Assembly: GCA_049516875.1 (NCBI GenBank)
Contig: JBEKSS010000011.1
Location: forward strand, 47,681 to 111,680
DNA from: Candidatus Bathyarchaeia archaeon
GTDB taxonomy: Archaea; Thermoproteota; Bathyarchaeia; Bathyarchaeales; Bathycorpusculaceae
Length of the DNA stretch: 64,000 bases
Reading direction: 5' to 3'
Position numbers and translations under genes: made by a program. A model generated the notes under the pieces. That model had not been told where the DNA came from, did no database searches, and saw nothing but the letters and a program-made list of their open reading frames with translations. Shown one piece after another: positions 10,116 to 26,238 of this stretch; position 1 is the stretch's first letter, and every line of letters starts with the position of its first letter.

Positions 10116-10490
10116 ATGGGCGTGACCAATCCTGCTGTAAGCATCAGTGGACTAAGAGAAAGAACTTCTGGAAAGTATGTCAAAACATCCCTTGATTTGG
10201 TGGTATTGGCAATATTAAACGACAAACCTATGCACGGTTACAAGATAATGGCAGCCATACATACAGAATTCGGCGTTTTGCTAAGTCCGGGTACTCTTTA
10301 CCCTCTTCTTCATTCGTTGGAGGAAAAGAAATTGGTAGAATCACGTGTTGAAGGGGGGAAGAAAGTTTACGAAGCCACCAACGAGGGAAGAACAAGATTC
10401 CAAAATGCGTTCACGATGTTTAAGGTATCAATGAATCAGCTGGAGAGCTTTGTAAAACGAAACGGGAAAAATTCTCTCAATGATTCGTAG
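10116..10490 (+). CDS. PadR-family regulator (GvpE-like wHTH)
   Basis: LDLVVLAILNDKPMHGYKI...LSPGTLYPLLHSLEEKKLV; paralogous to the C-terminal domain of 17569-18402. Confidence 0.88.
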   Translation: MGVTNPAVSISGLRERTSGKYVKTSLDLVVLAILNDKPMHGYKIMAAIHTEFGVLLSPGTLYPLLHSLEEKKLVESRVEGGKKVYEATNEGRTRFQNAFTMFKVSMNQLESFVKRNGKNSLNDS

Positions 10491-10531
10491 GCATTCTAGA
10501 CAAATTCTATGATAAACCTTGACCTATTTTT

Positions 10532-12451
10532 TCATTGTCTCGCTTCCAAGAGAGTTATCATTTCTTTTAGTTTGTTCATCTCCTTCTCGGTATGTCTGTA
10601 CGGTGTTTCTTCAAGTCTCTTTACTGTTTCCGCAATCTCTCTTCTCTCCTCGCTGGATGCTTTGTCACCCAATCCTTTTTCTACTGCAGAGGCCAATGTC
10701 CTGGCTTGGCTTACCCTTTTCACCTTCATGGTCATTCCGTTGGTCTGCTCTACCAACATGTCAATGTAGTCTTTGATTTTGTGAGCATTACTGCTATTCA
10801 ACGTCCCCTCAAGCCTGCCTATAGTTTCTTCCAGAGTCCCTTTTTCCTTTTCAGTGATTTTCCCGGTTACTTCTTCTATCACTTTCTTCGCCTCATAAAT
10901 CACATTCTTTGCCCGGCAACGGATTTCGATGTTCTCTTTTCTCTTTTCGTCTAAATCGTTAAACTTGGTTGCTTCGATGATCATCCTGGTGATTTCTTCT
11001 GCCAACAGCGCTGTCGACTTTAATACTTCAATTGTTTCTTTTTTCCCAGTTTCAAGAATCTCGGCAGAGACGCCCAGTATGCCATCAGCATCAATTTTGA
11101 AGGTAACTTCGACTTTCTGTTCATATCTGGGCGCTGGCAAAATCCCTTCTAGCTTAAACAAACCCAGTGACATGTTGTCCTTCGCCATCTCCCTTTCTCC
11201 TTGTAGAACGTGGATCATCATTGAAGTCTGGTCATCTTCTTCCGTTGCAAAAACCATACATGCCTCGGTTGGAATTGTTGTATTCCTCTTGATCAATCTA
11301 GTAAATATTCCACCAGACGTCTCGACGCCTAAAGACAGAGGAGCAACATCCAGCAAGAGCATATCTCTCATTTCACCTTTCAGAACGCTTGCCTGTATAC
11401 AAGCCCCAATAGCAACAATCCCCATCGGATCTATGCCCCTCTCAGGTTCCAATCTCGAGAAGAAATCTTTGAAGCATCTTCGGACTATTGGCATTCTAGT
11501 TGGTCCGCCCACGAGAACAAGTCTATCTATATCTTGAGAACTAAGGCCGGAATCTTTCAGGGCTTGTCCCAATGGATATTGGAGTCTATCCAGTTCAGGC
11601 TTTATGAGTTCCTCTAGCTTGTCTCGTGCTAGAACAATGCTCGGGTTAATTTCTGTCCCTTCTATGTTGATCTGAGTCTTCACGGTTGTTGAACGCCTAC
11701 TGGACAGGTGAATCTTGGCTAGTTCACCAGCGTCTCTGAGCTTATTCAATATTCTTTGGTCATTTCGTACGTCAACGTTGTATCTTTCTTCGACTTCCTT
11801 GACGAGGTAATCCAGAATTCTGTCGTCCATGTCTTTACCGCCGAGATGGGTGTCTCCGCTTGTAGATAGGACTCTGAAGATTCCGTTATTCATTTGCAGG
11901 ATCGTCACATCAAAGGTTCCAGAGCCCAAATCCAACACCGCGATTTTCAGGTTTTGACCGATCTTGTCTAGACCGTAAGCTAACGAGGCTGCCGTTGGTT
12001 CGCTGATAACTCGCAAAACCTCGAACCCTGCTTTTTCTCCGGCCTCTTTTGTGGCGTTTCTTTGGTTGTTATTGAAATATGCGGGGGTTGAGATTACCGC
12101 TTTGTCTATTTTCTCTCCCAAGTATATTTCAGCATCTTTTTTTATCTTCTTTATTATGAGAGCAGAAATTTCTTGAGAGGTGTACTTGTGACCATCTATT
12201 TCTACAGTGTAGTTTGTGCCGATTTTTCTCTTGATCCATCGTATCGTTCTGTCAGGATGAATGTAAGCGTATGTCTGAGCGTTTTTCCCGATGGCTATTT
12301 GGCCATCTTCTTTGAACGCTACGACAGAGGGAAACATTTTTCCATATGGGGTCGCTCCTTCAGATGCTGGAACAAGCTTTACTTTACCATCCTTCAGCAC
12401 AGCTGCAGCAGAGTTAGTAGTTCCAAGGTCTATTCCTATTGTTCGACCCAT
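10532..12451 (-). CDS. dnaK: Hsp70/DnaK, divergent paralogue at the end of the gvp unit
   Basis: GIDLGTTNS, PAYFN..QR.AT, EPTAASLAYG, DLGSGTFDV, LVGGPTRMP, LLLDVAPLSLG and EVTFKIDADGIL motifs. Confidence 0.93.
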   Translation of the reverse strand: MGRTIGIDLGTTNSAAAVLKDGKVKLVPASEGATPYGKMFPSVVAFKEDGQIAIGKNAQTYAYIHPDRTIRWIKRKIGTNYTVEIDGHKYTSQEISALIIKKIKKDAEIYLGEKIDKAVISTPAYFNNNQRNATKEAGEKAGFEVLRVISEPTAASLAYGLDKIGQNLKIAVLDLGSGTFDVTILQMNNGIFRVLSTSGDTHLGGKDMDDRILDYLVKEVEERYNVDVRNDQRILNKLRDAGELAKIHLSSRRSTTVKTQINIEGTEINPSIVLARDKLEELIKPELDRLQYPLGQALKDSGLSSQDIDRLVLVGGPTRMPIVRRCFKDFFSRLEPERGIDPMGIVAIGACIQASVLKGEMRDMLLLDVAPLSLGVETSGGIFTRLIKRNTTIPTEACMVFATEEDDQTSMMIHVLQGEREMAKDNMSLGLFKLEGILPAPRYEQKVEVTFKIDADGILGVSAEILETGKKETIEVLKSTALLAEEITRMIIEATKFNDLDEKRKENIEIRCRAKNVIYEAKKVIEEVTGKITEKEKGTLEETIGRLEGTLNSSNAHKIKDYIDMLVEQTNGMTMKVKRVSQARTLASAVEKGLGDKASSEERREIAETVKRLEETPYRHTEKEMNKLKEMITLLEARQ

Positions 12452-12477
12452 TCCGATCTGCCATCCCGGAAGATAGC

Positions 12478-13479
12478 TCAGTAACCTTTCTCGTGTATAA
12501 GGAGAGCTTCTTCGACCTTGGATTTGTCAAGAGAGCAGAGATAATGTTCGCAATACTTTGTCAGCAATTCGTGTGCGTTCTTGAGCTTCTTGAATTTCTC
12601 TTCAGCAAGAGGGTCGTCTGGGTGGAGGTCTGGGTGACATTCGCGCGCGAGTAGATTATATGCTGAGTTTACTTCGGACATGCTTGTTTCCTGACTAAGA
12701 TCCAAGATTCTTCGTGCTTCTTCTATAGCCTTGAAATCTATCTTTTTCATTTCAATGTTTACGAAATTGTATGGCGGCAAAGGACTGATGCTCATGAATT
12801 CAAGTTTCCCCTTGTACTTTCTTTCCAATTCCTCTAATCCATCATTAAATTCTTGTTCTTGTCTCTTGTCGACCAAAAAAGAAGCGCTCATTAAGGTGTC
12901 TTGATCAAGGATTTTGCTTTCTTTAAACCCTTCCGCCAAATTCTTCAAAGCGATTTCTATATTCTCCAAGTATTCATTCTTTTTCCTGTCTAGAGCTGAC
13001 TTAACTTTCCTTCCAAGCTCAATCTTCAGTGACTGGTCGTTAATCTCCTTTATTTCTCTGCTTAATGCTCGTATTTCTTCATTTTCTTCCAGAATGGATA
13101 CTAGGATCGATTTGTTCCATGAAATCTTGACGTTGATCTGAACTTTGTGGTCTATGTTTTTCAAGATGTGCTGGAATTTCTTTCGAGCTCGTTTCAAAAC
13201 GTTTCTTATCTCTGTCTCATCTTTGGCTACAACGCCGAAACCAATGGGGATTACTGTGTGAGTCTCCATAATTTTCTGCAGTGCCTTTTCGTGGACCCCA
13301 GCTTCTTCTATGTCAATCTTGAAACTTTCAGGGACATCACTAACTGCGGTGCCAATATCTTCGTATCGAACTACAAATACCTCGCTGTTGTCAATACCAA
13401 TGCAGCCGAAGCTCTCTTCATTTGCTGATCCTACAATTCCATAGACATATTTTCTCGTCTTATCCATACTTTTCTTCAC
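12478..13479 (-). CDS. GvpF/GvpL-family protein fused to a C-terminal J-domain
   Basis: YVYGIV, HEKALQKIMETHTVIPIGFG and PLPPYNFV (GvpF/L), then ARRILDL...AYNLLARECHPDLHPDDPLAEEKFKKLKNAHELL (J-domain with HPD). Confidence 0.85.
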   Translation of the reverse strand: MKKSMDKTRKYVYGIVGSANEESFGCIGIDNSEVFVVRYEDIGTAVSDVPESFKIDIEEAGVHEKALQKIMETHTVIPIGFGVVAKDETEIRNVLKRARKKFQHILKNIDHKVQINVKISWNKSILVSILEENEEIRALSREIKEINDQSLKIELGRKVKSALDRKKNEYLENIEIALKNLAEGFKESKILDQDTLMSASFLVDKRQEQEFNDGLEELERKYKGKLEFMSISPLPPYNFVNIEMKKIDFKAIEEARRILDLSQETSMSEVNSAYNLLARECHPDLHPDDPLAEEKFKKLKNAHELLTKYCEHYLCSLDKSKVEEALLIHEKGY

Positions 13480-14069
13480 CTCATTTCATTTTTGCAATCT
13501 TTCTTGCGATTGAGCGAGGCGAGCAAGGCATTTCCAATTGCTTCCTTGAACTCTCCGATTTCTGAAACATAGACGCGGCCTACTTCGCCGCCAGTGAACT
13601 GAAAATAAAGTTCATCACGCTCTGTTTTGAAGTGAGTTTCCTTTTGCACAATAAGTCCCTCTATCTTATCTAAAGGTGCCTCAAAAACAATCTCGGTAGG
13701 CTCTTTCCTCCAAAGGAAGAGCCTGTTGTTCGTAAGATACCATAGGCCTGGCTTCCACGTGTTCACGATGCCTTGATTGCTCCAGACCGATCCAAAGGCT
13801 TTGATTACTATTTCCTCATCCATGGTTAGCGGCACTGCCACTTTTTTCGCGTATTCTTTCTCATACCATTCCCTTGTGCGCTTGTCCCACGCTTCCATCA
13901 TCCCATATTCAATCATGGTCTCTATACCTGCGATTGCCGCCTTCAAGTTCACCCCTAACAGTGGAACGCCTGCAATAGATATGATCAGGTCTGCGTTCAG
14001 GACTAGCCCATTGTCTAACAATTTCTGTAGAATGTCGTTGATGTCACATTCTCGGTGGCTAGGTCTCAT
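13476..14069 (-). CDS. gvpM: GvpM-like (GvpA/J/M family) protein with an extra C-terminal GRAM/PH-like domain
   Basis: LLDNGLVLNADLIISIAGVPLLGVNLKAAIAGIETMIEYGMMEAWD resembles haloarchaeal GvpM. The C-terminal GLWYLTNNRLFL...PLDKIEGL is GRAM/PH-like. Confidence 0.75.
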   Translation of the reverse strand: MRPSHRECDINDILQKLLDNGLVLNADLIISIAGVPLLGVNLKAAIAGIETMIEYGMMEAWDKRTREWYEKEYAKKVAVPLTMDEEIVIKAFGSVWSNQGIVNTWKPGLWYLTNNRLFLWRKEPTEIVFEAPLDKIEGLIVQKETHFKTERDELYFQFTGGEVGRVYVSEIGEFKEAIGNALLASLNRKKDCKNEMR

Positions 14070-14071
14070 TC

Positions 14072-14902
14072 TCAGATTTCCCCAAGTTTGACAAAACTAA
14101 ATGGTGCCCATGGACCAGTGAAGCGAACCGCATAACCTTCTTGACCTATTTTACCGAGTGCTTGGCCGAGACCCTTGATGTTATCCTCGTGGACCAGGCA
14201 GGAAAACGCTGCAACTAGTTTCTCGTCTTTATAGTTCTCTGGTAAATGTGAAACTCTTCTCTCAATTTCCATTTCTTCAACGTGTTCTTCTATCTGGAAA
14301 GCGAACTCTTCGGCCAGTTTGGCTCGCGTTGCATTACAAGCATCGTTTAGTTTTAGTTCAAGCTTTCGACGAAAAAGGTATCCAGCTCGTTCAGGCATCT
14401 TGCTTGTTTTCTCTTTCAGTTCCCTTAGGGCTTGATCTTCAGCCAAGACTCTTTCCACTAGCCTCTCTTCGTCGGAGAAGATCTGAACCACATATTCTGC
14501 TCTTTGGCTGAGCCGTTCAAGCTCATGCTTGAATTTCTCATGGCACCTTCTCAGCCAGTCTTTGACGGTAATGTCACTACCCTTGACAATGGTGTCAAAA
14601 GAAAAAGGAATTACAGTGCCAAAATGCTCTGTGGCTCCATCGACTACATCATTGTGACTTAGAACCCACTCCATGACTTTTTTTGCGTCCTTTGACTGGT
14701 ATGGCTGGCTTTGACAAGCATGCACTACTGCTGCAACATCCTCGTGGGGAACTGTGTAGACTTCGGCTTTCGCTATTCCTATGTTACCCAAGCTCAGCTT
14801 GGCGGCGCCGTTGACGACACAGTATACGTATCTTCCTTCTGCAAGCTCAGTTTCTCCGAGGAGCTTTGTTTCTTTCATGCTTTTTTCATCTCCTTTTCCC
14901 AT
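14072..14902 (-). CDS. gvpL: Gas vesicle protein GvpL (GvpF/L family)
   Basis: GRYVYCVV, HNDVVD...TVIPFSFDT and FTGPWAPFSFV motifs; follows gvpK. Confidence 0.85.
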   Translation of the reverse strand: MGKGDEKSMKETKLLGETELAEGRYVYCVVNGAAKLSLGNIGIAKAEVYTVPHEDVAAVVHACQSQPYQSKDAKKVMEWVLSHNDVVDGATEHFGTVIPFSFDTIVKGSDITVKDWLRRCHEKFKHELERLSQRAEYVVQIFSDEERLVERVLAEDQALRELKEKTSKMPERAGYLFRRKLELKLNDACNATRAKLAEEFAFQIEEHVEEMEIERRVSHLPENYKDEKLVAAFSCLVHEDNIKGLGQALGKIGQEGYAVRFTGPWAPFSFVKLGEI

Positions 14903-15180
14903 CTTTCTGGGTTTAGAAATACGTCGGTTACTTCAGAAAGGCCATCAATTACAGAATCTACGACATCTTGAATGTCGTTCTCTTTCTTTATGTGGTTCAA
15001 TGCCTCGTTAAGGTCGGCTAGGGCTTCGCTGAGCCTTGCTTCTTCTTCAGCAGTCAACCTACCACTCTCAATTCGCCTTAGGGCTTGCCTCTCAAGAGCT
15101 TCTTCTATTATTTCAGCTAGAGCAACTACGAGCCCTAACAAGCCTTGTTTGAGGTTGCCTTCATCAACCTTGATTACCAT
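14875..15180 (-). CDS. gvpK: Gas vesicle protein GvpK
   Basis: GLLGLVVALAEIIEEALERQALRRIESGRLTAEEEARLSEAL. Confidence 0.93.
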   Translation of the reverse strand: MVIKVDEGNLKQGLLGLVVALAEIIEEALERQALRRIESGRLTAEEEARLSEALADLNEALNHIKKENDIQDVVDSVIDGLSEVTDVFLNPERWEKEMKKA

Positions 15181-15730
15181 GTCTTCTCACCGCTTTTTTC
15201 AGTACAACTTCTAAAACGCCGTTGTTAACTGTCTTTTTCATATTTCCTTCAACAGCGCTTGTAAGCAAGACTTCTTGATGATATTTTTTTCCAGCTATTA
15301 TGAGGAAACTGTCTTTGATTTCAAGTTTGATGTCTTCTTCTTGCAGGGGTATTGAAGCTGTTACCCTTAGAGTATCCTTTTCGTCGTGGAGGTCGAATGA
15401 TTTGCCGTTGGGTATATATTCTGTTAGTTCTTCGTTCAGCCACCACGAAAAAGTGATTTTTTCGCCTGTTAATGGATCAAGTTTGGAAGGCTCAAAAATG
15501 ATGAGAGGCTGCCCCGTAGTCTCTTGAACCTTTGGATTAATGACCTCCCTTATTTTGACCAAGACTTCCATGTCGGAAGAGGCATTGATAAGATCTGCCA
15601 GTTTTCTGATCCCTGCATGTCTCTCTTTTAGAAGATAAATTAGGATCTGGACGCTCTTCTGGTCTAGCGGGTTCATGGCTTGATTCGTGTTCGTCGAGTC
15701 TAAGTGTGAACTTGATGGTTTCCAAGTCAT
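15164..15730 (-). CDS. GvpH-like protein (HTH-like N-terminus + alpha-crystallin/Hsp20 C-terminus)
   Basis: C-terminal DLHDEKDTLRVTASIP...NNGVLEVVLKK; located inside the gvp unit. Confidence 0.65.
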   Translation of the reverse strand: MTWKPSSSHLDSTNTNQAMNPLDQKSVQILIYLLKERHAGIRKLADLINASSDMEVLVKIREVINPKVQETTGQPLIIFEPSKLDPLTGEKITFSWWLNEELTEYIPNGKSFDLHDEKDTLRVTASIPLQEEDIKLEIKDSFLIIAGKKYHQEVLLTSAVEGNMKKTVNNGVLEVVLKKAVRRHGNQG

Positions 15731-15760
15731 TCTTGTCGCCTCAGTTGGCTAGAGCCTCAA

Positions 15761-16138
15761 TTAGGTGAGCTTCACTTTCACTAATGCTTCTTCTTTCGTG
15801 ATGGCGCTTGCGCTTTTCCATCCACACCATGGACACTGATCATCGAGGAGTTGCTCTTTCTCCACGATTTTGTTGCATTGTGGACACCGTTCGTTGTCTT
15901 TTGTGGCTTCTTTCCACGCTTTTGTCTCTAGGTTTGTGCCAGATGGAAACTCTAAACCATATCTTGCTGCAGTCTCGAAAGAGGCTAACGCAGCTCTTAT
16001 TTTGATTCCAAGTAGTTCAACGCCGGCAACAGATACGGCGATGTCAGCATTGATGACTAACCCTTTGTCTAGAATCCTGTCTATGGCATCTGCCAAACCT
16101 CCAGAAGAATTTTCCTTCTGAGGCGTTAATGTTGTCAT
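15761..16138 (-). CDS. gvpJ: Gas vesicle protein GvpJ with a C-terminal zinc ribbon
   Basis: LADAIDRILDKGLVINADIAVSVAGVELLGIKIRAALASFETAARYGLEFP, then CPQC...CPWCGW. Confidence 0.88.
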   Translation of the reverse strand: MTTLTPQKENSSGGLADAIDRILDKGLVINADIAVSVAGVELLGIKIRAALASFETAARYGLEFPSGTNLETKAWKEATKDNERCPQCNKIVEKEQLLDDQCPWCGWKSASAITKEEALVKVKLT

Positions 16139-16164
16139 CTCTTCTTCCCCGACGGATCTAAGGT

Positions 16165-16560
16165 TCACCATATAGCATGGGTCTCCATATCTCTTGAAAT
16201 TCTGTGATCTGAATCAATTTTAGGCGTTTTTCTGCTTGGCCTAAGGTACACAATAGCGTTAACCTCGGTTTCTACGTTGTGTGATTTCAATGTACATAAG
16301 CAATATTCAAAAACCCGATACGAAATTTGTTTCGAAAATTGATAACCTCTTGCCGGATTGTCTCCTTCGTTGGTATCCATTCAAAAACGGTGACAACAAT
16401 AAGCTCCACATCTTTTGCTCGTATGATAAGCCTCCATTTCTGCATCTTCTATCGTTTCGTTTAGAAAAAGTTGCAGCTTCCCTTGCATCCGTTGCGATTA
16501 TGTACCCCAGCATGCTGTAGAGGAGACGACTTGGTTCGCTTCTTCTAAGTTGTTTTCATT
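16165..16560 (-). pseudogene. Probable decayed gene between gvpG and gvpJ
   Basis: ~400 bp inside an otherwise tightly coupled unit, broken into short minus-strand ORFs; one ends overlapping the gvpJ leader. No recognisable motif. Confidence 0.3.
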
Positions 16561-16563
16561 ATT

Positions 16564-16851
16564 CTATTCTGGTATCATCTTCTTTTTGAGGTCTTTTCTG
16601 TTCCTAAGATTGCTTATCTTTTGTTGCTGGTTTAATTCCCTATTTTTGCTTTCGTATTCCTCTTTTGTTGTTTCACCCAGTTCGTAGAGCAATCTGTTCT
16701 CTTTTACTTTGTCGTTAATTCTTCGTTGGATCTCCTCATATCTTGCATCCTCAACGTAATTCGTGATTGTTTCCAGCAGCCAGAGTGTATCAAATGGCGG
16801 TACTGATATGCCGAGTGTTCGAAGCAAAATGTCATCTATTAGAAACGGCAT
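16564..16851 (-). CDS. gvpG: Gas vesicle protein GvpG
   Basis: MPFLIDDILL...KENRLLYELGETTKEEYE; directly follows gvpF. Confidence 0.85.
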   Translation of the reverse strand: MPFLIDDILLRTLGISVPPFDTLWLLETITNYVEDARYEEIQRRINDKVKENRLLYELGETTKEEYESKNRELNQQQKISNLRNRKDLKKKMIPE

Positions 16852-17567
16852 TAGTTCACATGTTTTTTGTTGATTTCGATGCCTTGGGCTCCGATTTTTA
16901 TGTAAACGAAATTGTGTGGGGGCCAGGGGCCGCTATAAAGAAGCTTCAGCATGGGATATTTTTCCTGCAAACTTGCCACTTTGTCTGAAAATGCATCAAT
17001 ATCTCCTTTCTTGACCAGAAAAGATGTGTTTAGAATCAGTCTGTTGGTGAACAAGTTGCCTACGACTGATTGTTTTGCCACGGTGTTTAGTGTCCCTAAG
17101 ATGTCTGATATGCATTCCTTTCTTTTTTCAGGGTCAGTAAACCCGATGTCTGAGTTTAGAACAGCCTTCACCCCTAGCTCAATCATGTTATCAACTAGCT
17201 GTAGGCATTTTCTAGTTGGATCATAAGACTTTGTCAACAAGTGTTTCAATATTTTTTCGTTTTTTATCGTCGTTCCATATTCCACCGGTATGACTGTGTA
17301 TCTCTCCATTATCTGTCTCAAGACTTCTATATGCCTCCGTGTATTGTCTTCAGTAATCTCATAATCCTTCATAGGCAAATCGCTAACTAGGGCCGCGATG
17401 TCTCTATAAGGAATCGCGTGGACCTCGTCACCGTTCATTCCTATGTGCCCAAAACTTTTTCCTTCGTTACACAGTATCACGCCATAGAAATATTTTCCTT
17501 GTTCGTTTCCTCTCCCCTCTTTTCGCTCGGACCTCTTGGCAAGCTCTGCGCATTCTTCGCTTGTCAC
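16851..17567 (-). CDS. gvpF: Gas vesicle protein GvpF
   Basis: GKYFYGVI, YRDIAALVSD, HIEVLRQIMERYTVIPVEYGT and YSGPWPPHNFV motifs. Confidence 0.88.
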   Translation of the reverse strand: MTSEECAELAKRSERKEGRGNEQGKYFYGVILCNEGKSFGHIGMNGDEVHAIPYRDIAALVSDLPMKDYEITEDNTRRHIEVLRQIMERYTVIPVEYGTTIKNEKILKHLLTKSYDPTRKCLQLVDNMIELGVKAVLNSDIGFTDPEKRKECISDILGTLNTVAKQSVVGNLFTNRLILNTSFLVKKGDIDAFSDKVASLQEKYPMLKLLYSGPWPPHNFVYIKIGAQGIEINKKHVN

Positions 17568-17568
17568 T

Positions 17569-18402
17569 TCAATCTGTCTCCTTGACGATTTGTTCCGCCA
17601 TTAGGTAGTTGGCCAGTAGCTTACGAGCTTGAATGCGCTCCTCAATTATGTTTTTTATTTTCAATTCTGCGTCTCTTGCAGGGGCATACCTTTTTGCTTT
17701 GCCATCCTTGCCAGAAGTTAACAAACCCCTATCTCTTAATGACTGAAGGAGAGGATAGATTGTTCCTGGGCTAAGTAGCACGTTGAATTCCAGATGTATA
17801 GTTCCTATTATTTCAGTTCCACACATGTTTTTCCTTTGAAGCAGGGCAAGAATTATGGTCTCAAGATTATCTTTCACCATTTCTTCGACGGAGTCGCATG
17901 ATAACCTAGATTTGTCAATGAAATTTCCAGATAGCATTGTTATGTCGCTTGTTGTTAGTTGAAGGTGATTGTGGTATGCTGCAAATCGTCTAATTGTGTC
18001 GGAATCAAGTCTAGTAACCTCATATGTGCACAGACAGCGTAGAGGCTGCTTCTTGCCCAGCTCGTTTATGTAGTGTTCCCTTTCTGTGATTTCTTGGTCT
18101 TCTTGGTCAAGCATCGATCCAGCGTCTATGATTACGCGTAGCTTGCAGTTTCCCTTGTTTTCAAGGTCTCTAAGTTCTTCTGGTTTGATGATTCCTAACT
18201 CAACGTTCATGAACTTGAATTCTTTGATAAGTGATGCGGGATCGTCTCTAGTTACATATACTGCCCTTTCATCTTTTCTCATAAAAACCAAAAAAGCTCT
18301 TTGAATTTCGTATTTATCCACTTTCGACGTGTATAGGTGGAGGGTATGGTCTAAGCCTTCAAGACTTGTATTGGACCGTGGCTTCAAATTGACCGACTCC
18401 AT
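17569..18402 (-). CDS. MEDS-like sensor domain + PadR/GvpE-like wHTH regulator
   Basis: N-terminal HTLHLY...ERAVYVT...LRCLCTY resembles the MEDS pattern; C-terminal NLETIILALL...LSPGTIYPLLQSLRDRGLL. Confidence 0.75.
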   Translation of the reverse strand: MESVNLKPRSNTSLEGLDHTLHLYTSKVDKYEIQRAFLVFMRKDERAVYVTRDDPASLIKEFKFMNVELGIIKPEELRDLENKGNCKLRVIIDAGSMLDQEDQEITEREHYINELGKKQPLRCLCTYEVTRLDSDTIRRFAAYHNHLQLTTSDITMLSGNFIDKSRLSCDSVEEMVKDNLETIILALLQRKNMCGTEIIGTIHLEFNVLLSPGTIYPLLQSLRDRGLLTSGKDGKAKRYAPARDAELKIKNIIEERIQARKLLANYLMAEQIVKETD

Positions 18403-18444: not shown

Positions 18445-18729
18445 TTACCTGTATCTCTCTGCTTTTCTGTTAAGTTTCGCTGTTCTTGTGCCCCATTTCG
18501 CCTTCCGTGCTAAGTCTTTACATGCTCTTCTTCTCTCTAGCAAATCCACGCTTCTTATCGTTTCAATTACTGTTTCGGAGTTTGTTTTGGAATGCTGCAT
18601 GGCGTGATCCTTTTGAAGTCTCATACTTCCCTCCATTCTTCGTCTTGATTCCAGGTCACGGGAGGATTTTGCTCCCATCAAGTGAAAGTAGCTATTTAGA
18701 CTTCTCTGCCACGAGCTTCGTCTTCCCAT
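18445..18729 (-). CDS. Small basic hypothetical protein in the gvp unit
   Basis: ATG 11 bp after the gvpO stop and co-oriented; Arg/Lys-rich. No family recognised. Confidence 0.5.
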   Translation of the reverse strand: MGRRSSWQRSLNSYFHLMGAKSSRDLESRRRMEGSMRLQKDHAMQHSKTNSETVIETIRSVDLLERRRACKDLARKAKWGTRTAKLNRKAERYR

Positions 18730-18740: not shown

Positions 18741-19040
18741 TTAGCTAGTTTCTGTCTCGGTTTCAGAGGGCGATACCTTGTCACATCGTCTTCTAATGAC
18801 CTTCTGTGTCCAGCCGATTAACGCGCCGTTCTTGTTGAGTCTAATCTCGTATCTTCCCAGAAGATCCTGCGAGTCCGGTATGGACCTTCTCTCCAACACT
18901 TCAACAGTTATTCTCCATTCTCCCTCTAGTTGTTCGACACTTAAGATGGCTTCTGGTTCTTTACGTATGTACTTCTTTGCAATGGCAAATGCCCGATCGG
19001 TGACCTCTTCTATTGACACGCTAGTTTTCTCTGCCATCAT
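18741..19040 (-). CDS. gvpO: Gas vesicle protein GvpO
   Basis: GEWRITVEVLERRSIPDSQDLLGRYEIRL...G.L...RR. Confidence 0.92.
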   Translation of the reverse strand: MMAEKTSVSIEEVTDRAFAIAKKYIRKEPEAILSVEQLEGEWRITVEVLERRSIPDSQDLLGRYEIRLNKNGALIGWTQKVIRRRCDKVSPSETETETS

Positions 19041-19121
19041 TCCATATTTCCCCCAAGGGATAAGAATGTGGAATTAATTCCCAAGCCTGAAAATTGTTTA
19101 TCTCCATTCTGAACCGTGTCA

Positions 19122-20150
19122 TTACGTGTTTTCATTTTGAGAATCTCCATAGGCTTCTTTGATTACAGTCTGTATGAGGTCACTTTTCTTCAATAGTTCT
19201 TTTTGGTCGCCTATTTTTGTTGCAAGAACATCCATGTATATTTGTTCAATGTCTTCTTTTGAGCGGTTGCGTCCCAATGCTTTCAGTCCTTGGCAGATCA
19301 TTATTTCTGCTCTAGTACTTGGCTTGGAAGGTTCAGGCATCTTTTCCCTGATTGTTCTAATGACTTGTACTACTTTTTCTGCTTCACCAAATGGCAATTG
19401 AGTGTGAGCTTGAGCGATCTTTAGTTCAGTGCCATAGTCGTAGTAGTCCATGTAAATGTTTATCATCCTGTCAAGCAAGGCGTCCTGAGGTTTGTGTATT
19501 CCTGCATATTCTATGGAGTTGCTTGTTAAGATTATCGCGAAATCTGGATGGACCTTGATGTATCTATTATCTCCAAACATTGTCGGGAGTTCGAGAATCT
19601 TCTCTTCTAGCACAGAGAGAAGGACGTTGTTAGCTTCCGGTTTGGATCTGGCGAACTCATTGTAGACCAGTGTGTAGCCGTACTTACACGCTAGGGTCAG
19701 GGGGTTGTCTACCCATGAGAACTTGGTCCTATCTCTTGCTTTCATGACGTTGTGAATATATTTGTCTCTCACGCTTTCGGCTTCCATTTCTGAGTATCCT
19801 CCGATTAAATCTGTTGTTGTCATTTGTTCGTCGCCGTTGATCCACACAGTGGGTCTTCCCAAATCCTTTGCGACTTCCATTGCCAGTGTTGTTTTTCCGC
19901 AACCTGTTGGTCCTACAATCTGAAGGGGGCATCCTGCATTGACCCAAAGTTTGACTCTGTCCTTCAGCTTCTTAACATGCTCGGTTTCAACAAAATTCTT
20001 AACCGTCGGCACTAGAAATTCTGTCTTCACGCTTCTGACCAAAAGTTCTACGGCATATTCTTCATTTTCCTGTTTTGAAAGTCTCTCTTGCGCTGTCTCA
20101 TGAATTCTCGTTCCTCTAACTTCTCTTTTATGTGCAGATGTGTATTTCAT
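19122..20150 (-). CDS. gvpN: Gas vesicle AAA+ ATPase GvpN
   Basis: GPTGCGKTTLA, WVDNPLTLACKYGYTLVYNEFARSKPEANNVLLSVLEE and EYAGIHKPQDALLDRM. Confidence 0.96.
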   Translation of the reverse strand: MKYTSAHKREVRGTRIHETAQERLSKQENEEYAVELLVRSVKTEFLVPTVKNFVETEHVKKLKDRVKLWVNAGCPLQIVGPTGCGKTTLAMEVAKDLGRPTVWINGDEQMTTTDLIGGYSEMEAESVRDKYIHNVMKARDRTKFSWVDNPLTLACKYGYTLVYNEFARSKPEANNVLLSVLEEKILELPTMFGDNRYIKVHPDFAIILTSNSIEYAGIHKPQDALLDRMINIYMDYYDYGTELKIAQAHTQLPFGEAEKVVQVIRTIREKMPEPSKPSTRAEIMICQGLKALGRNRSKEDIEQIYMDVLATKIGDQKELLKKSDLIQTVIKEAYGDSQNENT

Positions 20151-20484
20151 ATTCTAAAACCACACTCTTGTTGAAGAAGAATTTGAGGTATGTTTACTTA
20201 AGTAATATTCAAGAGATTGATACGAATTTTGTGTCAGAAATCGTAAGCGCTCGCGCTAATTAATCGGGGCAGCTGATTCTCTTTTGTCACGTACAGAGTA
20301 CAAGAAAGGAGATTGGAGCTGCGGAGATGCCATAGAGTCGCTTTATTGAGAAAAGAAGAAGCTATTCAAATAACATTGCATGTATCAAAGGGAGACATGG
20401 AAGCTGGCCTCTTCAAGCTAACAGAGACAATAAATCAGATTGCAGCGGATTACTGCCAATGTATAAACATTGGAATTGTTTTGG

Positions 20485-21057
20485 TTACGCTTTTTCGCAT
20501 AGTTTTTTCAATCTAAGTTGTAGAATATTGTTTCTATAGGTCAAATCTGTTGTGTCTTTGTTGATGCGAGTTGGAAGCCTGACCATCTTAAAATACTTCT
20601 TCTCTGTATTTTCCGCCGTTATGGTTACAGAGTTTTCATCTGCTTTTACCTTCACGTCTTTCTCGTCTATGCCCGGCAGCTCTGTTAAAACTACCAAGTA
20701 GTTTTCTTCTTCAAAAACGTCGATTGGTGGCTGTCTCTCGTTCATCAAACTGGGTATATGATGGAGTAATTCGAAACTTCGTGTTGCTCCTGGTCTTCTT
20801 AATCTTCTTACGACATTAAAGGAGTCTTTCAATGTCATCGTATTGGAGGTAACTGCTTTCCTTGTTGCGTGCGTTTGTGGGACATAGGTTTGTTCAAAGC
20901 GAACGATGTGTCTGCAACCTCGGCAATGGTCTATGCTGACTCTGTCTCTTTGAGTGCTTCTGATCGAGGGACAGAAAACCCATTCAGCTCCCGCGATACC
21001 TCTAACTAAGAGTTTGTTTTTTCCTCTTCCGAAAGTTGCTCCACAAATCAGCCACAT
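20485..21057 (-). CDS. Hsp20/alpha-crystallin protein with a Cys-rich N-terminus
   Basis: PPIDVFEEENYLVVLTELPGIDEKDV...YRNNILQLRLKK; N-terminal FCP...HCRGCRH. Confidence 0.8.
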   Translation of the reverse strand: MWLICGATFGRGKNKLLVRGIAGAEWVFCPSIRSTQRDRVSIDHCRGCRHIVRFEQTYVPQTHATRKAVTSNTMTLKDSFNVVRRLRRPGATRSFELLHHIPSLMNERQPPIDVFEEENYLVVLTELPGIDEKDVKVKADENSVTITAENTEKKYFKMVRLPTRINKDTTDLTYRNNILQLRLKKLCEKA

Positions 21058-21253
21058 TCAACGTTCACACACGATGGATATGGATATTCAGAAGAGCGTG
21101 CATAAGCCATATTTCGCAATTTGGAATATTCCGTGGGGTATAGTGCACTGTTGTGTCGATGTTCGATACGAAGTCGGTTACGTTCCATTGAATATATCTT
21201 AAATAGTACTATTCACTACGTGAGTCATCGTATAACATAAAAAGGTGAAAAAA

Positions 21254-21478
21254 ATGGTTGGACAAACTCCTAACTCGACTAGTTTGGCTGAAGTTCTTGA
21301 CAGAGTGCTTGACAAAGGAATCGTCGTTGACCTTTGGGCCAGAGTCTCACCAGTCGGCATCGAACTCTTGACCATAGAGGCTAGAGTCGTTGTCGCCTCA
21401 GTAGACACCTTCCTGCACTACGCCGAAGAGATCACGAAGATAGAACAAGCAGCCATCGGAGTACCCGCTACCGCATAA
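21254..21478 (+). CDS. gvpA: Major gas vesicle structural protein GvpA
   Basis: [23 protein letters not shown](P)[27 protein letters not shown]; SD-like AGGTGA at 21243-21248. Confidence 0.96.
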
Positions 21479-21586
21479 GACCAAGGACAGCAAGCGGCCC
21501 ATATAGGAGATGAAAAAACGTCTGAAAAACAGGGAAAAGCGGCAAAACATGCGCAAACGGTTGCCAACACTGCAAAAAAGGCACCT

Positions 21587-21994
21587 GTGAAAAAGCACGG
21601 TCAAAGGGCCGCCATGCCAGTGAAAAAGCCAGAAGAGACCCCTCATTCAACAGTCAGAGGCAAGATTGAAGCAATCCAAAGAGAAATAAAAGCAATTCAA
21701 ATCAAAAGAGCGGCTATTGAAGAAGGCGCTGCTGAAATTCACACTGGCATACGAGCTATGGAAGTAAGCATAAACAAACAGATCGATAAATACAAAGATG
21801 CGATCGCCGTCTTTCATGCAAGTGTTGGAGACTTCAATAACTCTATTCTTGCGCAGTCGAAGGAAAACGAAAAAGCTGCCGCAACTATCTATTCTGGCGC
21901 ACGAGAAATCCAAGCAGGCATAGAAGCTATGCGGTCAAGTATCGAAGGCAAGATAATGGAAAACGCAGGGTACGTAAAGGACTTTTACGGGTAA
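21587..21994 (+). CDS. GvpC-like helical repeat protein (start uncertain)
   Basis: Directly after gvpA; ~25-residue amphipathic repeats (EIHTGIRAMEVSINKQI / EIQAGIEAMRSSIEGKI); followed by a C/T-rich tract. Confidence 0.6.
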   Translation: MKKHGQRAAMPVKKPEETPHSTVRGKIEAIQREIKAIQIKRAAIEEGAAEIHTGIRAMEVSINKQIDKYKDAIAVFHASVGDFNNSILAQSKENEKAAATIYSGAREIQAGIEAMRSSIEGKIMENAGYVKDFYG

Positions 21995-21997
21995 ATA

Positions 21998-22008
21998 CCC
22001 CCTTTTTT
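21998..22008 (+). terminator. Oligo-T terminator-like tract after the gvpA-gvpC unit
   Basis: CCCCCTTTTTT immediately after the stop codon. Confidence 0.5.
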
Positions 22009-22039
22009 CGATTTCTTAAGCTCATGTTAGACTTATAGT

Positions 22040-22225
22040 TTGGAGGTGGCAAAAATCACTATTATGAGACCGAAAACCCATTTGCGCGCTCAAGAAAGAG
22101 AAAGAAAGCAAAAGTGGTATATGCAAGAAATGGAAAAACTGCAACACTTATCTATCGCCATGCGTCCACAAGCGATTCGCGCCTTATGGGTAAGAGATGT
22201 CGTTAAGAAAGAAGAGGAAGAATAA
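22040..22225 (+). CDS. Small hypothetical protein
   Basis: Co-oriented between the gvpC-like ORF and cdc48; GGAGGTG precedes an internal ATG (MRPKTH...). Confidence 0.35.
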
Positions 22226-22314
22226 CCGCTTGCAGAAGGACATCTCCTTTCTGTTTTTCAGTTCCGATGTTTGAGCGCGCGCATAGTGACCTGCAGGTTA
22301 GGAAAGGTGGACGT

Positions 22315-24510
22315 GTGCTGGAGCATACACAAAAATCGAATATCTTGACACTTCGTGTGGCTGAAGCCTCGCAAAGAGACTTTGGCAGGGGCGTAGCTAG
22401 AGTCGACCCCGAAGACCTGGGAAAAATCAGTGCGGAAACCGGCGACGTTATCATAATTACTGGGAAGAAGAGAACTGCTGCGAAGGTTATGCCAGCATAC
22501 CCAGAAAACCGTGGCAAAGGCATCATCCAGATCGACGGGATAACCAGGAACAATGCACTTGTCGGAATTGACGACAAGGTTCACATCGAGCGAGTTACTG
22601 CTGAAAAAGCCGAAACCGTTGTTCTCGCGCCTTTGGACAAGACCCAGTCTTGGCTTAGAGAGAAAACATACGAAGACCATGCGAAGAAGCTTTTGGAAGG
22701 TTTGCCACTGACTGAAGGAGACCAAGTCAGGTTTAGCTTTCTTGGGACAAGTGCCTCCTTTGTCGTAGCGCAATTGAAGCCGAAGAGTATGGCTGTTATA
22801 GTTTATCCCAGCACAAGAATAATGATACAAGAAAAGGCCGTGGAAACGGGAAGAACAGTAGGCGTCACGTACGAAGACATTGGTGGGCTCCGCGAACAGA
22901 CTCAGAGAATAAGAGAGATGATAGAGCTTCCACTTCGACATCCAGAGGTCTTTGACCGGCTAGGTATAGAACCGCCTAAAGGTGTCTTGCTGCACGGTCC
23001 ACCAGGCACAGGAAAAACCCTCATTGCAAAAGCCGTCGCGAACGAAACTTTCGCGACTTTTATCAGTCTCAGCGGCGCCGAAATCCACGGCAAATATTAC
23101 GGAGAATCAGAGGCTCATCTAAGAGAAATCTTCAATCAAGCCGCACAAAATAAACCGTGCATCATATTCATCGACGAAATCGATGCCATAGCACCCAAGA
23201 GAGAAGAGGTTACGGGAGAAGTTGAAAAGAGAGTAGTTTCCCAACTGCTAGCTCTGATGGATGGATTGGAACCTAGAGGACAAGTGATGATCATTGGAGC
23301 GACAAATCGGCCTAATGCCATTGACCCGGCTCTTAGAAGATCAGGGAGGTTCGACCGGGAAATTGAAATAGGGATACCCAACAGGGAAGGGCGATTCGAG
23401 ATTCTTCAAATTCACACGCGAGGTATGCCGTTGACCCAAAATGTAAACTTGCGAAGACTTGGTGACTTGACTCATGGCTTCACTGGTGCTGATATGTCGG
23501 GATTATGCAAAGAGGCATCTATGAAAGCCTTGCGGAGAGTTCTGCCTGAGATTGACTTCGAAGCAGAGTATATCCCAGCAGAAGTTCTTAACAAACTTGT
23601 AGTAACGATGGAAGATTTTGTGGATGCCTTGCGTTTTGTAGAACCTTCCGCCTTAAGGGAAGTGTTGATCGAAACACCTAATGTCGGTTGGAGCGACATT
23701 GGGGGGCTGGAAGAAGTGAAACAGGCCCTGATGGAAGCCATTGAATGGCCATTGAAATACCCCGACATCTTTGAAAGAATGGGGGCGAAGCCTCCGAAAG
23801 GCATATTGCTATACGGGCCTCCCGGAACTGGCAAAACTCTGTTAGCCAAAGCTGTGGCTAAGGAAGGCGAGGCAAATTTCATTCACGTTAAAGGGCCATC
23901 TCTCATGAGCAAGTTCGTGGGCGAATCGGAGAAAGGCATAAGAGAAACCTTCAGGAAAGCAAAGCAAACTGCGCCGTGCATAATCTTCTTTGATGAGATA
24001 GATTCTATGACGCCTAGGCGCGGAAGCGGAATTACAGACTCGCATGTTTCAGAAAGAGTGATAAGCCAACTTCTTACCGAAATGGACGGGCTGGAGGAAC
24101 TTCAGGGAGTCATCATTCTAGCCGCAACAAATCGAATAGATCTGATTGACCCGGCACTACTGAGACCCGGAAGATTCGACTATCTTCTTTCCATTCCGGC
24201 ACCAGACGAAAAAGGGAGAGCAGAAATTTTCAGGATTCGCACCAAGAAGAGTTCTCTAGCCAAAAGTGTTTCCCTCAAGAAGTTGGTTGCAGAAACTGAA
24301 GGATACACGGGGGCTGACATAGAAGGGATCTGCAGAGAGGCTGTGATGCTAGCCATCAGAAGATATATAGGCAAAAGCACAAAACAAGACGAAAACAGAC
24401 GAAAACACTCCAAGCTTGAAGTGACCATGGAAGACTTCCAAGAAGCAATCAAGAAAATGAAGGAACGCAAAAAATCAGTTGACACCAATCAGGAAGAACC
24501 TATCCTATGA
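22315..24510 (+). CDS. cdc48: CDC48/VCP (VAT-like) AAA+ ATPase
   Basis: N-domain ([12 protein letters not shown]) and two AAA modules (GPPGTGKTL twice; IFIDEIDAI / IFFDEIDS; ALRRSGRFD / ALLRPGRFD). Confidence 0.95.
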
Positions 24511-25499
24511 GAAAACTGACGGCCAACGGAATTCAAAGTCTGAACTTTCAAGGAGACATAGAATCTACTAAAAAATTGATCAATCAGACACTCCGGAAAA
24601 TCCATAAAAAAATGGTAGAATTATTCAACATCGATTTCACGTACTTTAGAGACATCAACATAATCAAGCAACCCGAACTTCTCAAGCAATTGGCCAAACG
24701 CATGTGGAGCGATCTCAAGGAAAGCGGCGTAGTATGTAGCAACGACCATATGAAACAAATCCTCGACAGCCTTTCAAAGAACCAAGTGGAAGGATTCTTC
24801 GAAAACTTCGCTTTCTATAACCCGAAAGATGAAATTCTGTACATAAATGAAAATGTCATAACAAACCACCCAAAAAGAGTGATTCCTATATGCGCACACG
24901 AGCTGTCGGAGAAGCTTCTGTCCACTTATCTTTCGAAGTCCCTTAAAGCGCCCACCCAAGTTCTTATCAGGAAATATGTTGAAGCTAAGAGAACTAACAG
25001 CATAAGGAAGTTTTATGAGTATTTGGACATGTACATAGATACGGTTTTCAAGAGTGTTTTCAAAGAAGGGTGTTGCGAGGCATTGGCTCTTCGAACCTTG
25101 CGCGACACAGAATATGGAGTTGAGACGGCGTCGCTGGAAAAAGAGTTGTTGATAGGTCATTCAAAATGTGTAAAACTTCTCTTTTCTCTTGAAAGCATAA
25201 GGAGTGCAGAAAGGGCAAGAAAAGCCGAAGTGCACCTGCAACGCGAAGGGGGCCAAGGTCAAGAGATAAACGCGGAGAATCTGGCCAAAGAGTTTTTCCG
25301 GGATTCCCAGGTGATTAAGGGGCTCTCGTATTATTTAGGTTACCCACTAGCAAAGGCTGTTTTAGAGAAGTACTCGATTGAGGGTGTGAAAGCTGCTCTG
25401 GAAAAGAGCCCCCCGCTTGAGGCCAAGTATTTTGCTGCTCCGGAAGAGTACGTAGCCCTGCTGGAAGAACTGCAAGTAGCTAGTGAACAGAGGAGGTGA
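24507..25499 (+). CDS. Hypothetical protein, possible degenerate zincin-like fold
   Basis: [14 protein letters not shown]...[10 protein letters not shown]...KEGCCEALA...[15 protein letters not shown]; overlaps the cdc48 stop (ATGA). Confidence 0.6.
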
Positions 25500-26238
25500 A
25501 AAAACGACTAAAAAAGCGAAAAAAGACTTGGAAACACTCAGGACCGAAATTAAGCAAAAAGAAGAGGAAATTGAACAGTTGAAAGAAAAAGTGGAAAAGA
25601 TGGGGGTTCAAATCCAAGAAAAAGAGAAACAAGAGAAAACTGGTGAACCAGAGCTGGGCAAGATGATCGAGAATGTCTCAGGTCTGCTTGACGTTGGTTT
25701 CGGCATTTTTGGCACGTCGGAGAAGAGCCAAGGCGGAAAATCGAAAGGTCAAGGATTGATTGGATTAATCGATGATTTAAGCAAACTGACGGAGAAATCT
25801 CAGACATATCAAAAGAGAGTTGAGCTTGGAAAAACGGGGGAAGTCAACTTCCGCGTGACTTCTCGTCCGATAAGAGGGCCTGCGGCAAATATGGCAGACA
25901 GAATAAAGATGAGTAAGCCTCAGAACAAGGTTTCTCCTGCTCCGACAAAGATTCCTGCAGGGCCAATAAAGGAGAGAGAACCAATAGTTGATGTCTTCGA
26001 AGATGGAGATTTCGTAAATGTCATGGCTGAGCTGCTTGGTGTAGAAGAAAGCAAGGTAAAACTGGAAGTAGAGAACGATGTCTTAACGATAAGGAGTGAC
26101 ACTTCTGCAAGGAAATACTATAAAGAAGTAAAACTTCCGACATCTGTCAAGAAAGACCCTGTTGAATCAAAGTTCAGGAACGGTATCTTAGAAATCAAGT
26201 TAGTCAAGGCAAAGCGTTCTCCAGGAAAAGATGCTTAG
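25483..26238 (+). CDS. Hsp20/alpha-crystallin protein with an N-terminal coiled coil
   Basis: EREPIVDVFEDGDFVNVMAELLGVEE...RKYYKEVKLP...FRNGILEIKLVK. Confidence 0.85.
   Translation: MNRGGEKTTKKAKKDLETLRTEIKQKEEEIEQLKEKVEKMGVQIQEKEKQEKTGEPELGKMIENVSGLLDVGFGIFGTSEKSQGGKSKGQGLIGLIDDLSKLTEKSQTYQKRVELGKTGEVNFRVTSRPIRGPAANMADRIKMSKPQNKVSPAPTKIPAGPIKEREPIVDVFEDGDFVNVMAELLGVEESKVKLEVENDVLTIRSDTSARKYYKEVKLPTSVKKDPVESKFRNGILEIKLVKAKRSPGKDA

Follow-up and report, generated by a model that had tools for sequence, protein, structure and literature searches.

A gas-vesicle gene cluster of a Bathyarchaeon carries a GvpL/F–J-domain fusion and a putatively client-specific Hsp70

In Halobacterium salinarum, whose gas-vesicle genes are arranged as gvpACNO and gvpDEFGHIJKLM, proteins of the GvpF/L family form a hub contacting GvpA and the accessory proteins; GvpF was reported as the sole partner of GvpA and GvpL as a protein that binds all accessory Gvps (PMC7688916). 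Binding of free GvpA by GvpF-family proteins early in assembly has been reported (PMC7688916, PMC11445434), GvpF and GvpG of the Bacillus megaterium system were hypothesised to be chaperones of GvpA2 (PMC11445434), and GvpH may chaperone GvpM (PMC6107691). GvpA is described as extremely hydrophobic, and the aggregation of GvpA2 in Escherichia coli as proteotoxic unless assembly factors come first (PMC12848028). How GvpA stays soluble and is inserted into the growing vesicle is an open question, for which a chaperone role of GvpF and GvpL has hitherto been hypothesised (PMC11445434). Genes for small heat-shock proteins (Hsp20; sHsps) are common in gvp clusters, and some bacterial clusters combine hsp20 with a second, ArsA-like ATPase thought to energise a step of biogenesis (PMC2963123). 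Here, we describe a gvp cluster located at positions 10116–26238 of a 64,000-nucleotide stretch of DNA from Candidatus Bathyarchaeia archaeon (contig JBEKSS010000011.1; the whole stretch is hereafter called the window), in which genes for a DnaK-type Hsp70, a J-domain protein, and the ATPase CDC48 are located among or beside the gas-vesicle genes.

The cluster, hereafter the island, was analysed by listing open reading frames (ORFs) and by hidden Markov model scans with the curated cut-offs of Pfam and NCBIfam. An earlier reading of the bare sequence (the original prediction) had named its genes, and each of them was found where it had been placed. The island is compact and contains gvpA, a gvpC-like gene, gvpN, gvpO, gvpF, gvpG, gvpJ, gvpK, gvpL, and gvpM, three sHsp genes, dnaK, cdc48, and genes for two PadR-type regulators. 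Similar to the H. salinarum cluster, it has homologues of A, N, O, F, G, J, K, L, and M, an Hsp20-like equivalent of H, and a C-like gene after gvpA. Unlike that cluster, it has a MEDS-PadR and a PadR protein, a third GvpL/F paralog with a J-domain (hereafter GvpLJ), a private DnaK, an extra CDC48 with a 330-residue protein (u330), and three sHsps, and its GvpJ and GvpM bear C-terminal extensions. As in the bacterial clusters with hsp20 and an ArsA-like ATPase, the gvp operon is extended by chaperone and ATPase genes, but the island adds an Hsp70 with a fused J-domain and CDC48, and no ArsA homologue was seen in it. We consider it reasonably likely that the island is a functional gvp cluster from a Bathyarchaeon of peat or wetland and that it supplies an Hsp70 system specific to its own clients, working in shell-protein assembly.

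The J-domain, which the original prediction had listed beside DnaK, is not a gene of its own but residues 258–308 of the third GvpL/F paralog, and its fusion had been missed. In this single ORF, PF06386 matched residues 10–241 and PF00226 matched the C-terminal J-domain, both above their cut-offs (27.8 for PF00226), and the HPD tripeptide of the J-domain occupies residues 282–284. A profile of the fusion family matched the GvpF structures 6l5d and 4qsg in the PDB over residues 3–238, and J-domains including that of E. coli DnaJ over residues 248–303. Both domains were found in all 120 listed relatives of the protein. The HPD tripeptide was invariant in an alignment of 15 fusions sharing 27–66% identity and intact in 79/79 metagenome matches that span the J-domain. 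In databases, the fusion is annotated as 'GvpL/GvpF family gas vesicle protein' or 'hypothetical', and one source gives both domains. For the complex of the GvpL/F domain (residues 1–245 of the fusion) with GvpA, structure prediction gave scores of 0.17 and 0.30, both short of the 0.32 mark; these were obtained without controls and were used neither for nor against an interaction.

To designate the compared sequences, L and a number are used for related loci, G000 for the source genome, and G and another number for other genomes. A scan of a genome collection yielded 18 related loci, 14 of which were labelled Bathyarchaeia or Bathyarchaeota (a record named BA2 among them), one Thermoproteota, one 'Micrarchaeota', and two Dehalococcoidales. 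These labels fit the Bathyarchaeial affiliation that had been proposed for the DNA. The nearest loci showed 87–89% protein identity. DnaK was encoded directly behind GvpLJ in 16/16 archaeal loci, and dnaK was placed between gvpLJ and gvpM in nine of them, or in 12 loci when three of a second, distant Bathyarchaeia family are included. In that family, the gene order was N-O-MEDS/PadR-F-G-J-K-L-LJ-DnaK-M, and DnaK directly followed GvpLJ in 3/3 loci, with GvpLJ at 33–37% and DnaK at 52% identity to the proteins of the window. The locus L014, labelled 'Candidatus Micrarchaeota', carries a Bathyarchaeia-type island (62%, 76%, and 77% identity for GvpLJ, DnaK, and CDC48, respectively), which points to a mis-binned contig or a transfer of the island.

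In a class-wide scan, the fusion was detected in 7/401 Bathyarchaeia genomes, namely G000, three of 103 in its own family, and three of 71 in the second family. gvpA was detected in 5/401 genomes, each of which was among the seven with the fusion; thus, no gvp cluster free of chaperone genes was seen in the class sample. From metagenomes, the best 80 of 527 confirmed relatives were examined, one of which was the window's own sequence, and they were divided into 21 close loci (at least 50% identity) and 59 distant (type II) loci. Where a close locus extends 600 nt or more past the fusion, DnaK was always encoded directly downstream of it (16/16). The chaperone genes were thus kept beside gvp genes in both archaeal families and in the close metagenome loci, and the pairing of CDC48 with an sHsp of the sHsp3 type recurred in archaeal and Dehalococcoidales-type loci. 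GvpLJ, with DnaK as its conserved neighbour, is predicted to stimulate the ATPase of a partner Hsp70.

The island DnaK was scored as DnaK by NF001413 (663 bits; cut-off, 648) and reached 654 bits with TIGR02350, under the cut-off of 822; its PF00012 match covered profile positions 100–595 plus the N-terminus. It was 46–49% identical to Bathyarchaeial housekeeping DnaKs and, when aligned with them, retained the interdomain linker LLLDVxPLSLG and the motifs of the substrate-binding domain. Its nucleotide-binding domain is two residues shorter, with PRYEQ in place of the conserved PRGVPQ, and a longer helical tail replaces the Q/P-rich tail. In L019, the island dnaK was matched in two frames (10995–12903) that join near 11641, indicating a frameshift or a sequencing error. 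In G000 (97.5% complete), another contig carries a canonical grpE-dnaK-dnaJ operon, and CDC48 is encoded by two further genes; the island copies are accordingly not the housekeeping ones. In G008 (100% complete), G403 (the BA2 record), and G261 (69% complete), the island Hsp70 and J-domain were the only ones found, which indicates that in some genomes the Hsp70/J pair exists solely inside the gvp cluster. Neither GrpE nor a full-length DnaJ was found in these three genomes. GrpE was found in G000 and G187, and none was encoded within the island. Across the class, Hsp70 is patchy (295/401 genomes).

A DnaK tree was constructed with IQ-TREE (LG+G4; 30 rows) from Bathyarchaeia and Dehalococcoidales. 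The 18 archaeal island DnaKs formed one clade (support 100/100; stem 0.65), sister to six Bathyarchaeial housekeeping copies (99/99), and two gvp-linked DnaKs of Dehalococcoidales formed a separate clade (100/100). Forcing all gvp-linked DnaKs into a single clade cost 23.5 log-likelihood units and was rejected by the approximately unbiased (AU) test (p = 0.023) at this limited sampling. This result suggests independent recruitment. The simplest reading of the tree, given limited sampling and several long branches, is that the fused J-domain was already part of the cluster when archaea and bacteria each added an Hsp70 paralog of their own. The island CDC48s from four genomes of both Bathyarchaeia families likewise formed a clade (SH-aLRT support 100), so that both trees proposed with the original prediction set the island proteins apart; the CDC48 tree left the position of the gvp-linked CDC48 of Dehalococcoidales without resolution.

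In bacteria, a row of sHsp, CDC48, and GvpL/F-J genes accompanies gvpA, N, F, J, K, L, M, and O in both Dehalococcoidales loci. In a sample of this order, a GvpL/F match was obtained in 15/201 genomes and ran through the J-domain in seven. Two of these seven, G434 and G535, encode DnaK directly after gvpM, as a second copy beside the housekeeping DnaK. Among 120 listed relatives of the Dehalococcoidales fusion protein, 49 have both domains, and its relatives include records named Dehalococcoidia, Patescibacteria group, and Berkelbacteria. The gvp-linked CDC48 of Dehalococcoidales was the only full-length CDC48 found in its genome. In the Dehalococcoidales locus L023, a stand-alone 77-residue DnaJ-type zinc finger with CXXCXGXG repeats is encoded just upstream of gvpN (2135–2368; PF00684, 32.0 bits, just under the 32.7 cut-off).

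The closest working analogy for the pair of GvpLJ and DnaK appears to be HscA/HscB, a specialised Hsp70 paralog encoded next to a J-protein that uses its non-J domain to bind a single class of client, the Fe-S scaffold IscU. HscA/HscB works without GrpE. The island pair would share this design, and no GrpE was found in the three genomes whose only Hsp70/J pair is the island one. Unlike HscB, GvpLJ has a GvpL/F domain rather than the HscB C-domain as its putative client-binding part, and unlike HscA, the island Hsp70 scored higher as DnaK (663 bits) than as HscA (502 bits, below the cut-off) and, among the sequences sampled for the tree, is sister to Bathyarchaeial housekeeping DnaK. In the mechanism that we propose, the GvpL/F domain would bind the hydrophobic, aggregation-prone shell proteins of the GvpA family (GvpA, GvpJ, and GvpM), as GvpF and GvpL of Halobacterium and Bacillus do, the fused J-domain would trigger ATP hydrolysis in the island DnaK, and DnaK would clamp the client, which would thereby stay soluble and assembly-competent until it is passed to the growing shell. 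The three sHsps may serve as ATP-independent holdases, as has been proposed for GvpH. A second, optional module would consist of CDC48, u330, and sHsp3 and act as an unfoldase by which shell protein that is misassembled or collapsed is extracted or recycled.

The island CDC48 was matched by CDC48_N, CDC48_2, and two AAA domains, contains GPPGTGKT twice in its translation, and, unlike other Bathyarchaeial CDC48 paralogs, is without their conserved C-terminal tail. The start of u330 overlaps the CDC48 stop codon, and u330 lies behind CDC48 in the window, L014, and L028, a translational coupling read from the sequence. The u330 family is narrow: a search of 1.84 billion proteins gave only 17 representatives at E ≤ 0.001. 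Its invariant residues H131, E132, E135, K136, E187, G188, and E191 form an HExxEK motif followed downstream by EGxxEA. The AlphaFold2 model of u330 had a mean predicted local distance difference test score (pLDDT) of 81.6 and a predicted template modelling score (pTM) of 0.84. Its best fold match in the PDB by Foldseek was 3cmn, a 'putative hydrolase with a novel fold' (probability 0.99, E = 0.066, TM-score 0.44–0.48), and a protein atlas gave Zincin_2 and DUF5700 as leads (0.86–0.89). The assignment of u330 as a zincin metalloprotease was rejected because the motif is HExxE and not HExxH, and weak leads to zincins remain. It is a putative CDC48-associated protein, possibly a degenerate zincin. 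The module thus resembles Cdc48/p97 with its adaptors and FtsH in that CDC48, with its N, D1, and D2 domains above cut-off, is coupled to a protein with a weak zincin-like lead; unlike FtsH, in which the AAA+ domain is fused to a zincin protease, the two are separate proteins whose binding is predicted, and the fold match of u330 is weak.

Of the three sHsps, sHsp1 and sHsp3 matched the alpha-crystallin domain PF00011 above cut-off, and sHsp2, with no Pfam match at E ≤ 0.01, was recognised by the NCBIfam Hsp20 model alone, below cut-off. An N-terminal extension of about 100 residues is present in sHsp1, residues 1–190 of which were matched in L008 and L009; that of sHsp3 is long, coiled-coil, and of low complexity. 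sHsp2 occupies the same position in 14/16 archaeal loci, and the other two, L021 and L024, end short of that part.

Table 1. Genes of the gas-vesicle island and the profile matches or features on which they were named (positions in the window; bit scores are followed by cut-offs where given).
Feature	Position	Strand	Evidence
PadR-family regulator	10116–10490	+	PF03551 62.6 bits (cut-off 27); divergent from dnaK
Island DnaK	10532–12451	-	PF00012 592 bits
GvpL/F + J-domain fusion (GvpLJ)	12478–13479	-	PF06386 181.8 bits; PF00226 48.2 bits
GvpM-like, GvpA family	13476–14069	-	PF00741 44.1 bits; NF046091 (GvpM) best, 80 bits, below cut-off 109
GvpL	14072–14902	-	NF045778 213 bits (cut-off 200); PF06386 202 bits
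GvpK	14875–15180	-	PF05121 59.9 bits (cut-off 25)
sHsp2, between gvpJ and gvpK	15164–15730	-	NF041800 (archaeal Hsp20) E = 2.3e-12, 46.8 bits, below cut-off
GvpJ	15761–16171	-	PF00741 59.3 bits; NF046090 (GvpJ) best, 99.7 bits, below cut-off 125
GvpG, weak match	16564–16851	-	PF05120 26.6 bits (cut-off 30.6); NF045779 35.8 bits (cut-off 85)
GvpF-like GvpL/F paralog	16851–17567	-	PF06386 139.8 bits
MEDS + PadR-type regulator within the operon	17569–18402	-	PF14417 30.8 bits (cut-off 29.8); PF03551 30.3 bits (cut-off 27)
Basic 94-aa ORF	18445–18729	-	No Pfam or NCBIfam match
GvpO	18741–19040	-	PF05800 67.5 bits (cut-off 25)
GvpN, AAA+ ATPase	19122–20150	-	TIGR02640 328 bits (cut-off 267)
sHsp1, GvpH-like	20485–21057	-	PF00011 24.5 bits (cut-off 20.8); PF05455 (GvpH) 21.6 bits (cut-off 22); NF041800 E = 1.1e-24
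GvpA, major shell protein	21245–21478	+	NF046092 129 bits (cut-off 112); PF00741 53.9 bits
gvpC-like coiled-coil ORF	21587–21994	+	Named by position, internal repeat, and coiled-coil character; no family match
Island CDC48 (N domain, D1, D2)	22267–24510	+	TIGR01243 1012 bits (cut-off 803)
u330, 330-aa ORF	24507–25499	+	Invariant HExxEK motif; narrow family
sHsp3	25483–26238	+	PF00011 27.3 bits (cut-off 20.8); NF041800 E = 4.4e-26

The genes of the minus strand are read in the order sHsp1, gvpN, gvpO, the 94-aa ORF, MEDS+PadR, gvpF, gvpG, gvpJ, sHsp2, gvpK, gvpL, gvpM-like, GvpLJ, and dnaK. In line with the overlapping stop and start codons noted in the original prediction, many neighbouring genes overlap or abut, with overlaps of 1–28 nt: GvpLJ/GvpM by 4 nt, GvpL/GvpK by 28 nt, GvpK/sHsp2 by 17 nt, and GvpG/GvpF by 1 nt on this strand, and CDC48/u330 by 4 nt and u330/sHsp3 by 17 nt on the plus strand. 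GvpN, L, K, O, the F/L paralogs, and the Gas_vesicle domain of J and M were above the curated cut-offs; GvpG and the specific models of GvpJ and GvpM gave best matches that were under cut-off, and the gvpG slot between gvpF and gvpJ is conserved in relatives. No match to the GvpC family above noise was obtained for the ORF behind gvpA in the Pfam and NCBIfam scans. This ORF was also found behind gvpA in relatives (30–81% identity), and the 94-aa ORF was recognisable in relatives as well (37–78% identity). No match to GvpD, GvpE, or GvpI was seen in the island, and MEDS-PadR and PadR would probably take the place of the haloarchaeal regulators GvpD and GvpE. A PadR homologue lies just past DnaK or GvpM in 13/16 archaeal loci, and both Bathyarchaeia families retain a PadR gene beyond dnaK as well as MEDS-PadR in its place between gvpO and gvpF. 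Scans of the window for tRNAs and Rfam families gave zero matches.

The ratio of nonsynonymous to synonymous substitutions (dN/dS) against L008 was 0.08–0.31 for most island genes, with values of 0.10, 0.18, and 0.22 for GvpA, GvpLJ, and DnaK, respectively, and was higher, at 0.40–0.82, for GvpG, the 94-aa ORF (0.54), the gvpC-like ORF, and GvpO. All island ORFs are intact and, judged by these ratios, under purifying selection. A candidate gene of 71 residues at 16165–16380, u71, is probably not a gene: it was split into two frames in L007–L009, had no family match, and gave a dN/dS of 0.40 over 37 aligned residues. In more distant relatives, a second GvpJ-like paralog with a zinc ribbon is located at the position corresponding to 16165–16563, and no trace of it is kept in the window. 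As read from the translation, the C-terminus of the island GvpJ is itself a zinc-ribbon-like (Cys4) tail, CPxC...CPxC, and about 120 residues without a Pfam match extend the C-terminus of the GvpM-like protein; both extensions are conserved in relatives. The sole match of a short ORF just beyond the island, at 27145–27468, was to the C-terminal RMMBL domain of beta-CASP RNases (26.5 bits), and this ORF is possibly a gene fragment.

The divergent orientation of gvpA and gvpC noted in the original prediction is a peculiarity of the window's lineage and is not shared by L008, L009, L013, and L018, which carry gvpA, gvpC, and gvpN on one strand. Compared with these loci, the segment containing sHsp1, gvpA, and gvpC is inverted, with ends at about 20250/20454 and 22272/22284, so that the reading direction of gvpA-gvpC now leads into CDC48 and sHsp1 has become the first gene of the gvpN operon. 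Both breakpoints were bridged in the window orientation by contigs of sequencing runs not flagged as source (X6 records 12 and 16, X8 records 25 and 30, and X10 record 8, a contig of 4937 nt from a relative with about 96% identity), which indicates that the inversion is real and common to close strains. An invertible switch around gvpA-gvpC was rejected: within 19900–22400, no inverted repeat was longer than 22 nt at 73% complementarity, the two breakpoints share an 11-nt inverted match, and the compared contigs, which could miss rare variants, contained no strand-changing joints. The inversion is thus read as fixed and not as switching.

The GC content of the island is 43.5%, compared with 47.2% for the genome, which places it among the lowest 1.7% of 16-kb windows. 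Horizontal spread of the island would fit this value and the patchy distribution in the class. The DNA recurs in metagenomes of peat, wetland, groundwater, and sediment (20 datasets from 17 studies; five of the datasets were flagged as possible sources), and none of the 22 listed sequencing runs was an RNA dataset. The original prediction had called buoyancy or dispersal unexpected in a lineage known mainly from sediments. That contrast is softened by the DNA from peat, wetland, and groundwater, and the cluster is rare in the class.

Several observations weigh against a dedicated system for shell assembly. We infer the client of GvpLJ from what is reported for homologues of other organisms. 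AlphaFold2 modelled the fusion poorly (pLDDT 53.9), and the helices at residues 267–281 and 290–314, which flank HPD, were of low confidence. The DnaK trees were limited to Bathyarchaeia and Dehalococcoidales, with long branches. DnaK is missing from most type II loci, with any DnaK in 6/59; the 12 such loci of at least 14 kb contained CDC48 in 11, sHsp in 11, and DnaK in only 3, so that the J-domain there would have to use a housekeeping Hsp70. CDC48 is not a constant partner either: it was directly upstream of the fusion in just 24/45 distant loci with room, no island-type copy was found in G162, and none was visible within reach of the cluster in L011 (the BA2 cluster) or L016. Moreover, assembly and disassembly are not separable by sequence. 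The chaperones might instead serve turnover, with GvpLJ docking on finished or collapsed vesicles and DnaK and CDC48 stripping GvpA from the lattice for rapid loss of buoyancy or recycling of the shell, much as auxilin and Hsc70 uncoat clathrin. The presence of an unfoldase in the same island, its position directly before the fusion gene in those 24 loci, and its translational coupling to u330 with the weak zincin-like lead would suit such a role, as would the fact that, to our knowledge, gas vesicles cannot be re-inflated once collapsed. However, the Bathyarchaeial DnaK/J pair is located among the early assembly genes gvpL, gvpM, and gvpK and not beside CDC48, it is retained in islands without a nearby CDC48 (L011, L016, and L026), and the reported binding of free GvpA by the GvpF family belongs to an early stage of assembly (PMC7688916, PMC11445434). 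We regard turnover as an unlikely primary role of the pair.

Two further explanations appear far less probable. DnaK in E. coli controls sigma-32, and the island pair could by analogy control expression through MEDS-PadR, PadR, GvpN, or GvpO instead of acting on the shell. This is very improbable despite the conservation of two PadR-type regulators in the island, one directly past dnaK, since the J-domain is fused to GvpL/F, whose homologues were reported to bind structural Gvps and not regulators (PMC7688916), and the type II loci retain the fusion yet gave no tblastn matches to MEDS-PadR. We likewise give very little credence to a general stress island that merely adjoins gvp genes, or to a silent relic cluster, although Hsp20 is common beside gvp genes and has been read as a heat-shock link (PMC7325909) and the low GC content fits a transferred block. 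Evidence to the contrary comes from the covalent link between the J-domain and a Gvp protein, the position of dnaK among gvp genes, the intact ORFs under purifying selection, and a gene order retained at 33–52% protein identity. In addition, the three genomes that have the island Hsp70/J alone, with neither GrpE nor a full DnaJ found, would have a poor basis for general proteostasis. Assembly of shell proteins by a client-specific Hsp70 system is thus the reading that we favour. The proposal in the original prediction of dedicated Hsp70/J, sHsp, and AAA+ activities is supported by the conservation, dedication, and separate clades of the proteins, but CDC48 is not universal and we infer the chaperone action on the shell. 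More tentatively, and as a combination that may well fail in one of its parts, the data could be joined into a picture of vesicle building powered by Hsp70, in which a GvpL/F-J adaptor feeds a private, GrpE-independent Hsp70 that has this sole purpose in some Bathyarchaeia, archaea and Dehalococcoidales recruited their Hsp70s independently, and CDC48 with u330 is an unfoldase for shell recycling.

Searches of open full-text literature yielded no account of a gas-vesicle cluster that includes Hsp70, a J-domain, or CDC48, and no report of Bathyarchaeia with gas vesicles, nor was the arrangement found to have been characterised there. The island is a real, conserved, and apparently undescribed gas-vesicle variant, of which the sHsp part was already known. 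The fusion of a GvpL/F domain to a J-domain beside a putatively dedicated Hsp70 ties the GvpL/F family to chaperone-assisted client handling, an idea that is directly testable. If the proposed mechanism is true, the fusion would give direct genetic support to the chaperone function that has long been suspected for GvpF/L, and the island would provide ready-made parts for easing GvpA toxicity in engineered hosts. Aggregation of GvpA is described as limiting gas-vesicle reporters in E. coli (PMC12848028), and clusters bearing chaperone genes are candidates for better-behaved acoustic reporter genes. An archaeal Hsp70 that looks client-dedicated, with GrpE not found in some of its genomes, also bears on the specialisation of Hsp70s. 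For the organisms themselves, these clusters mark a small subset of peat and wetland Bathyarchaeia and of Dehalococcoidales as probably buoyant.

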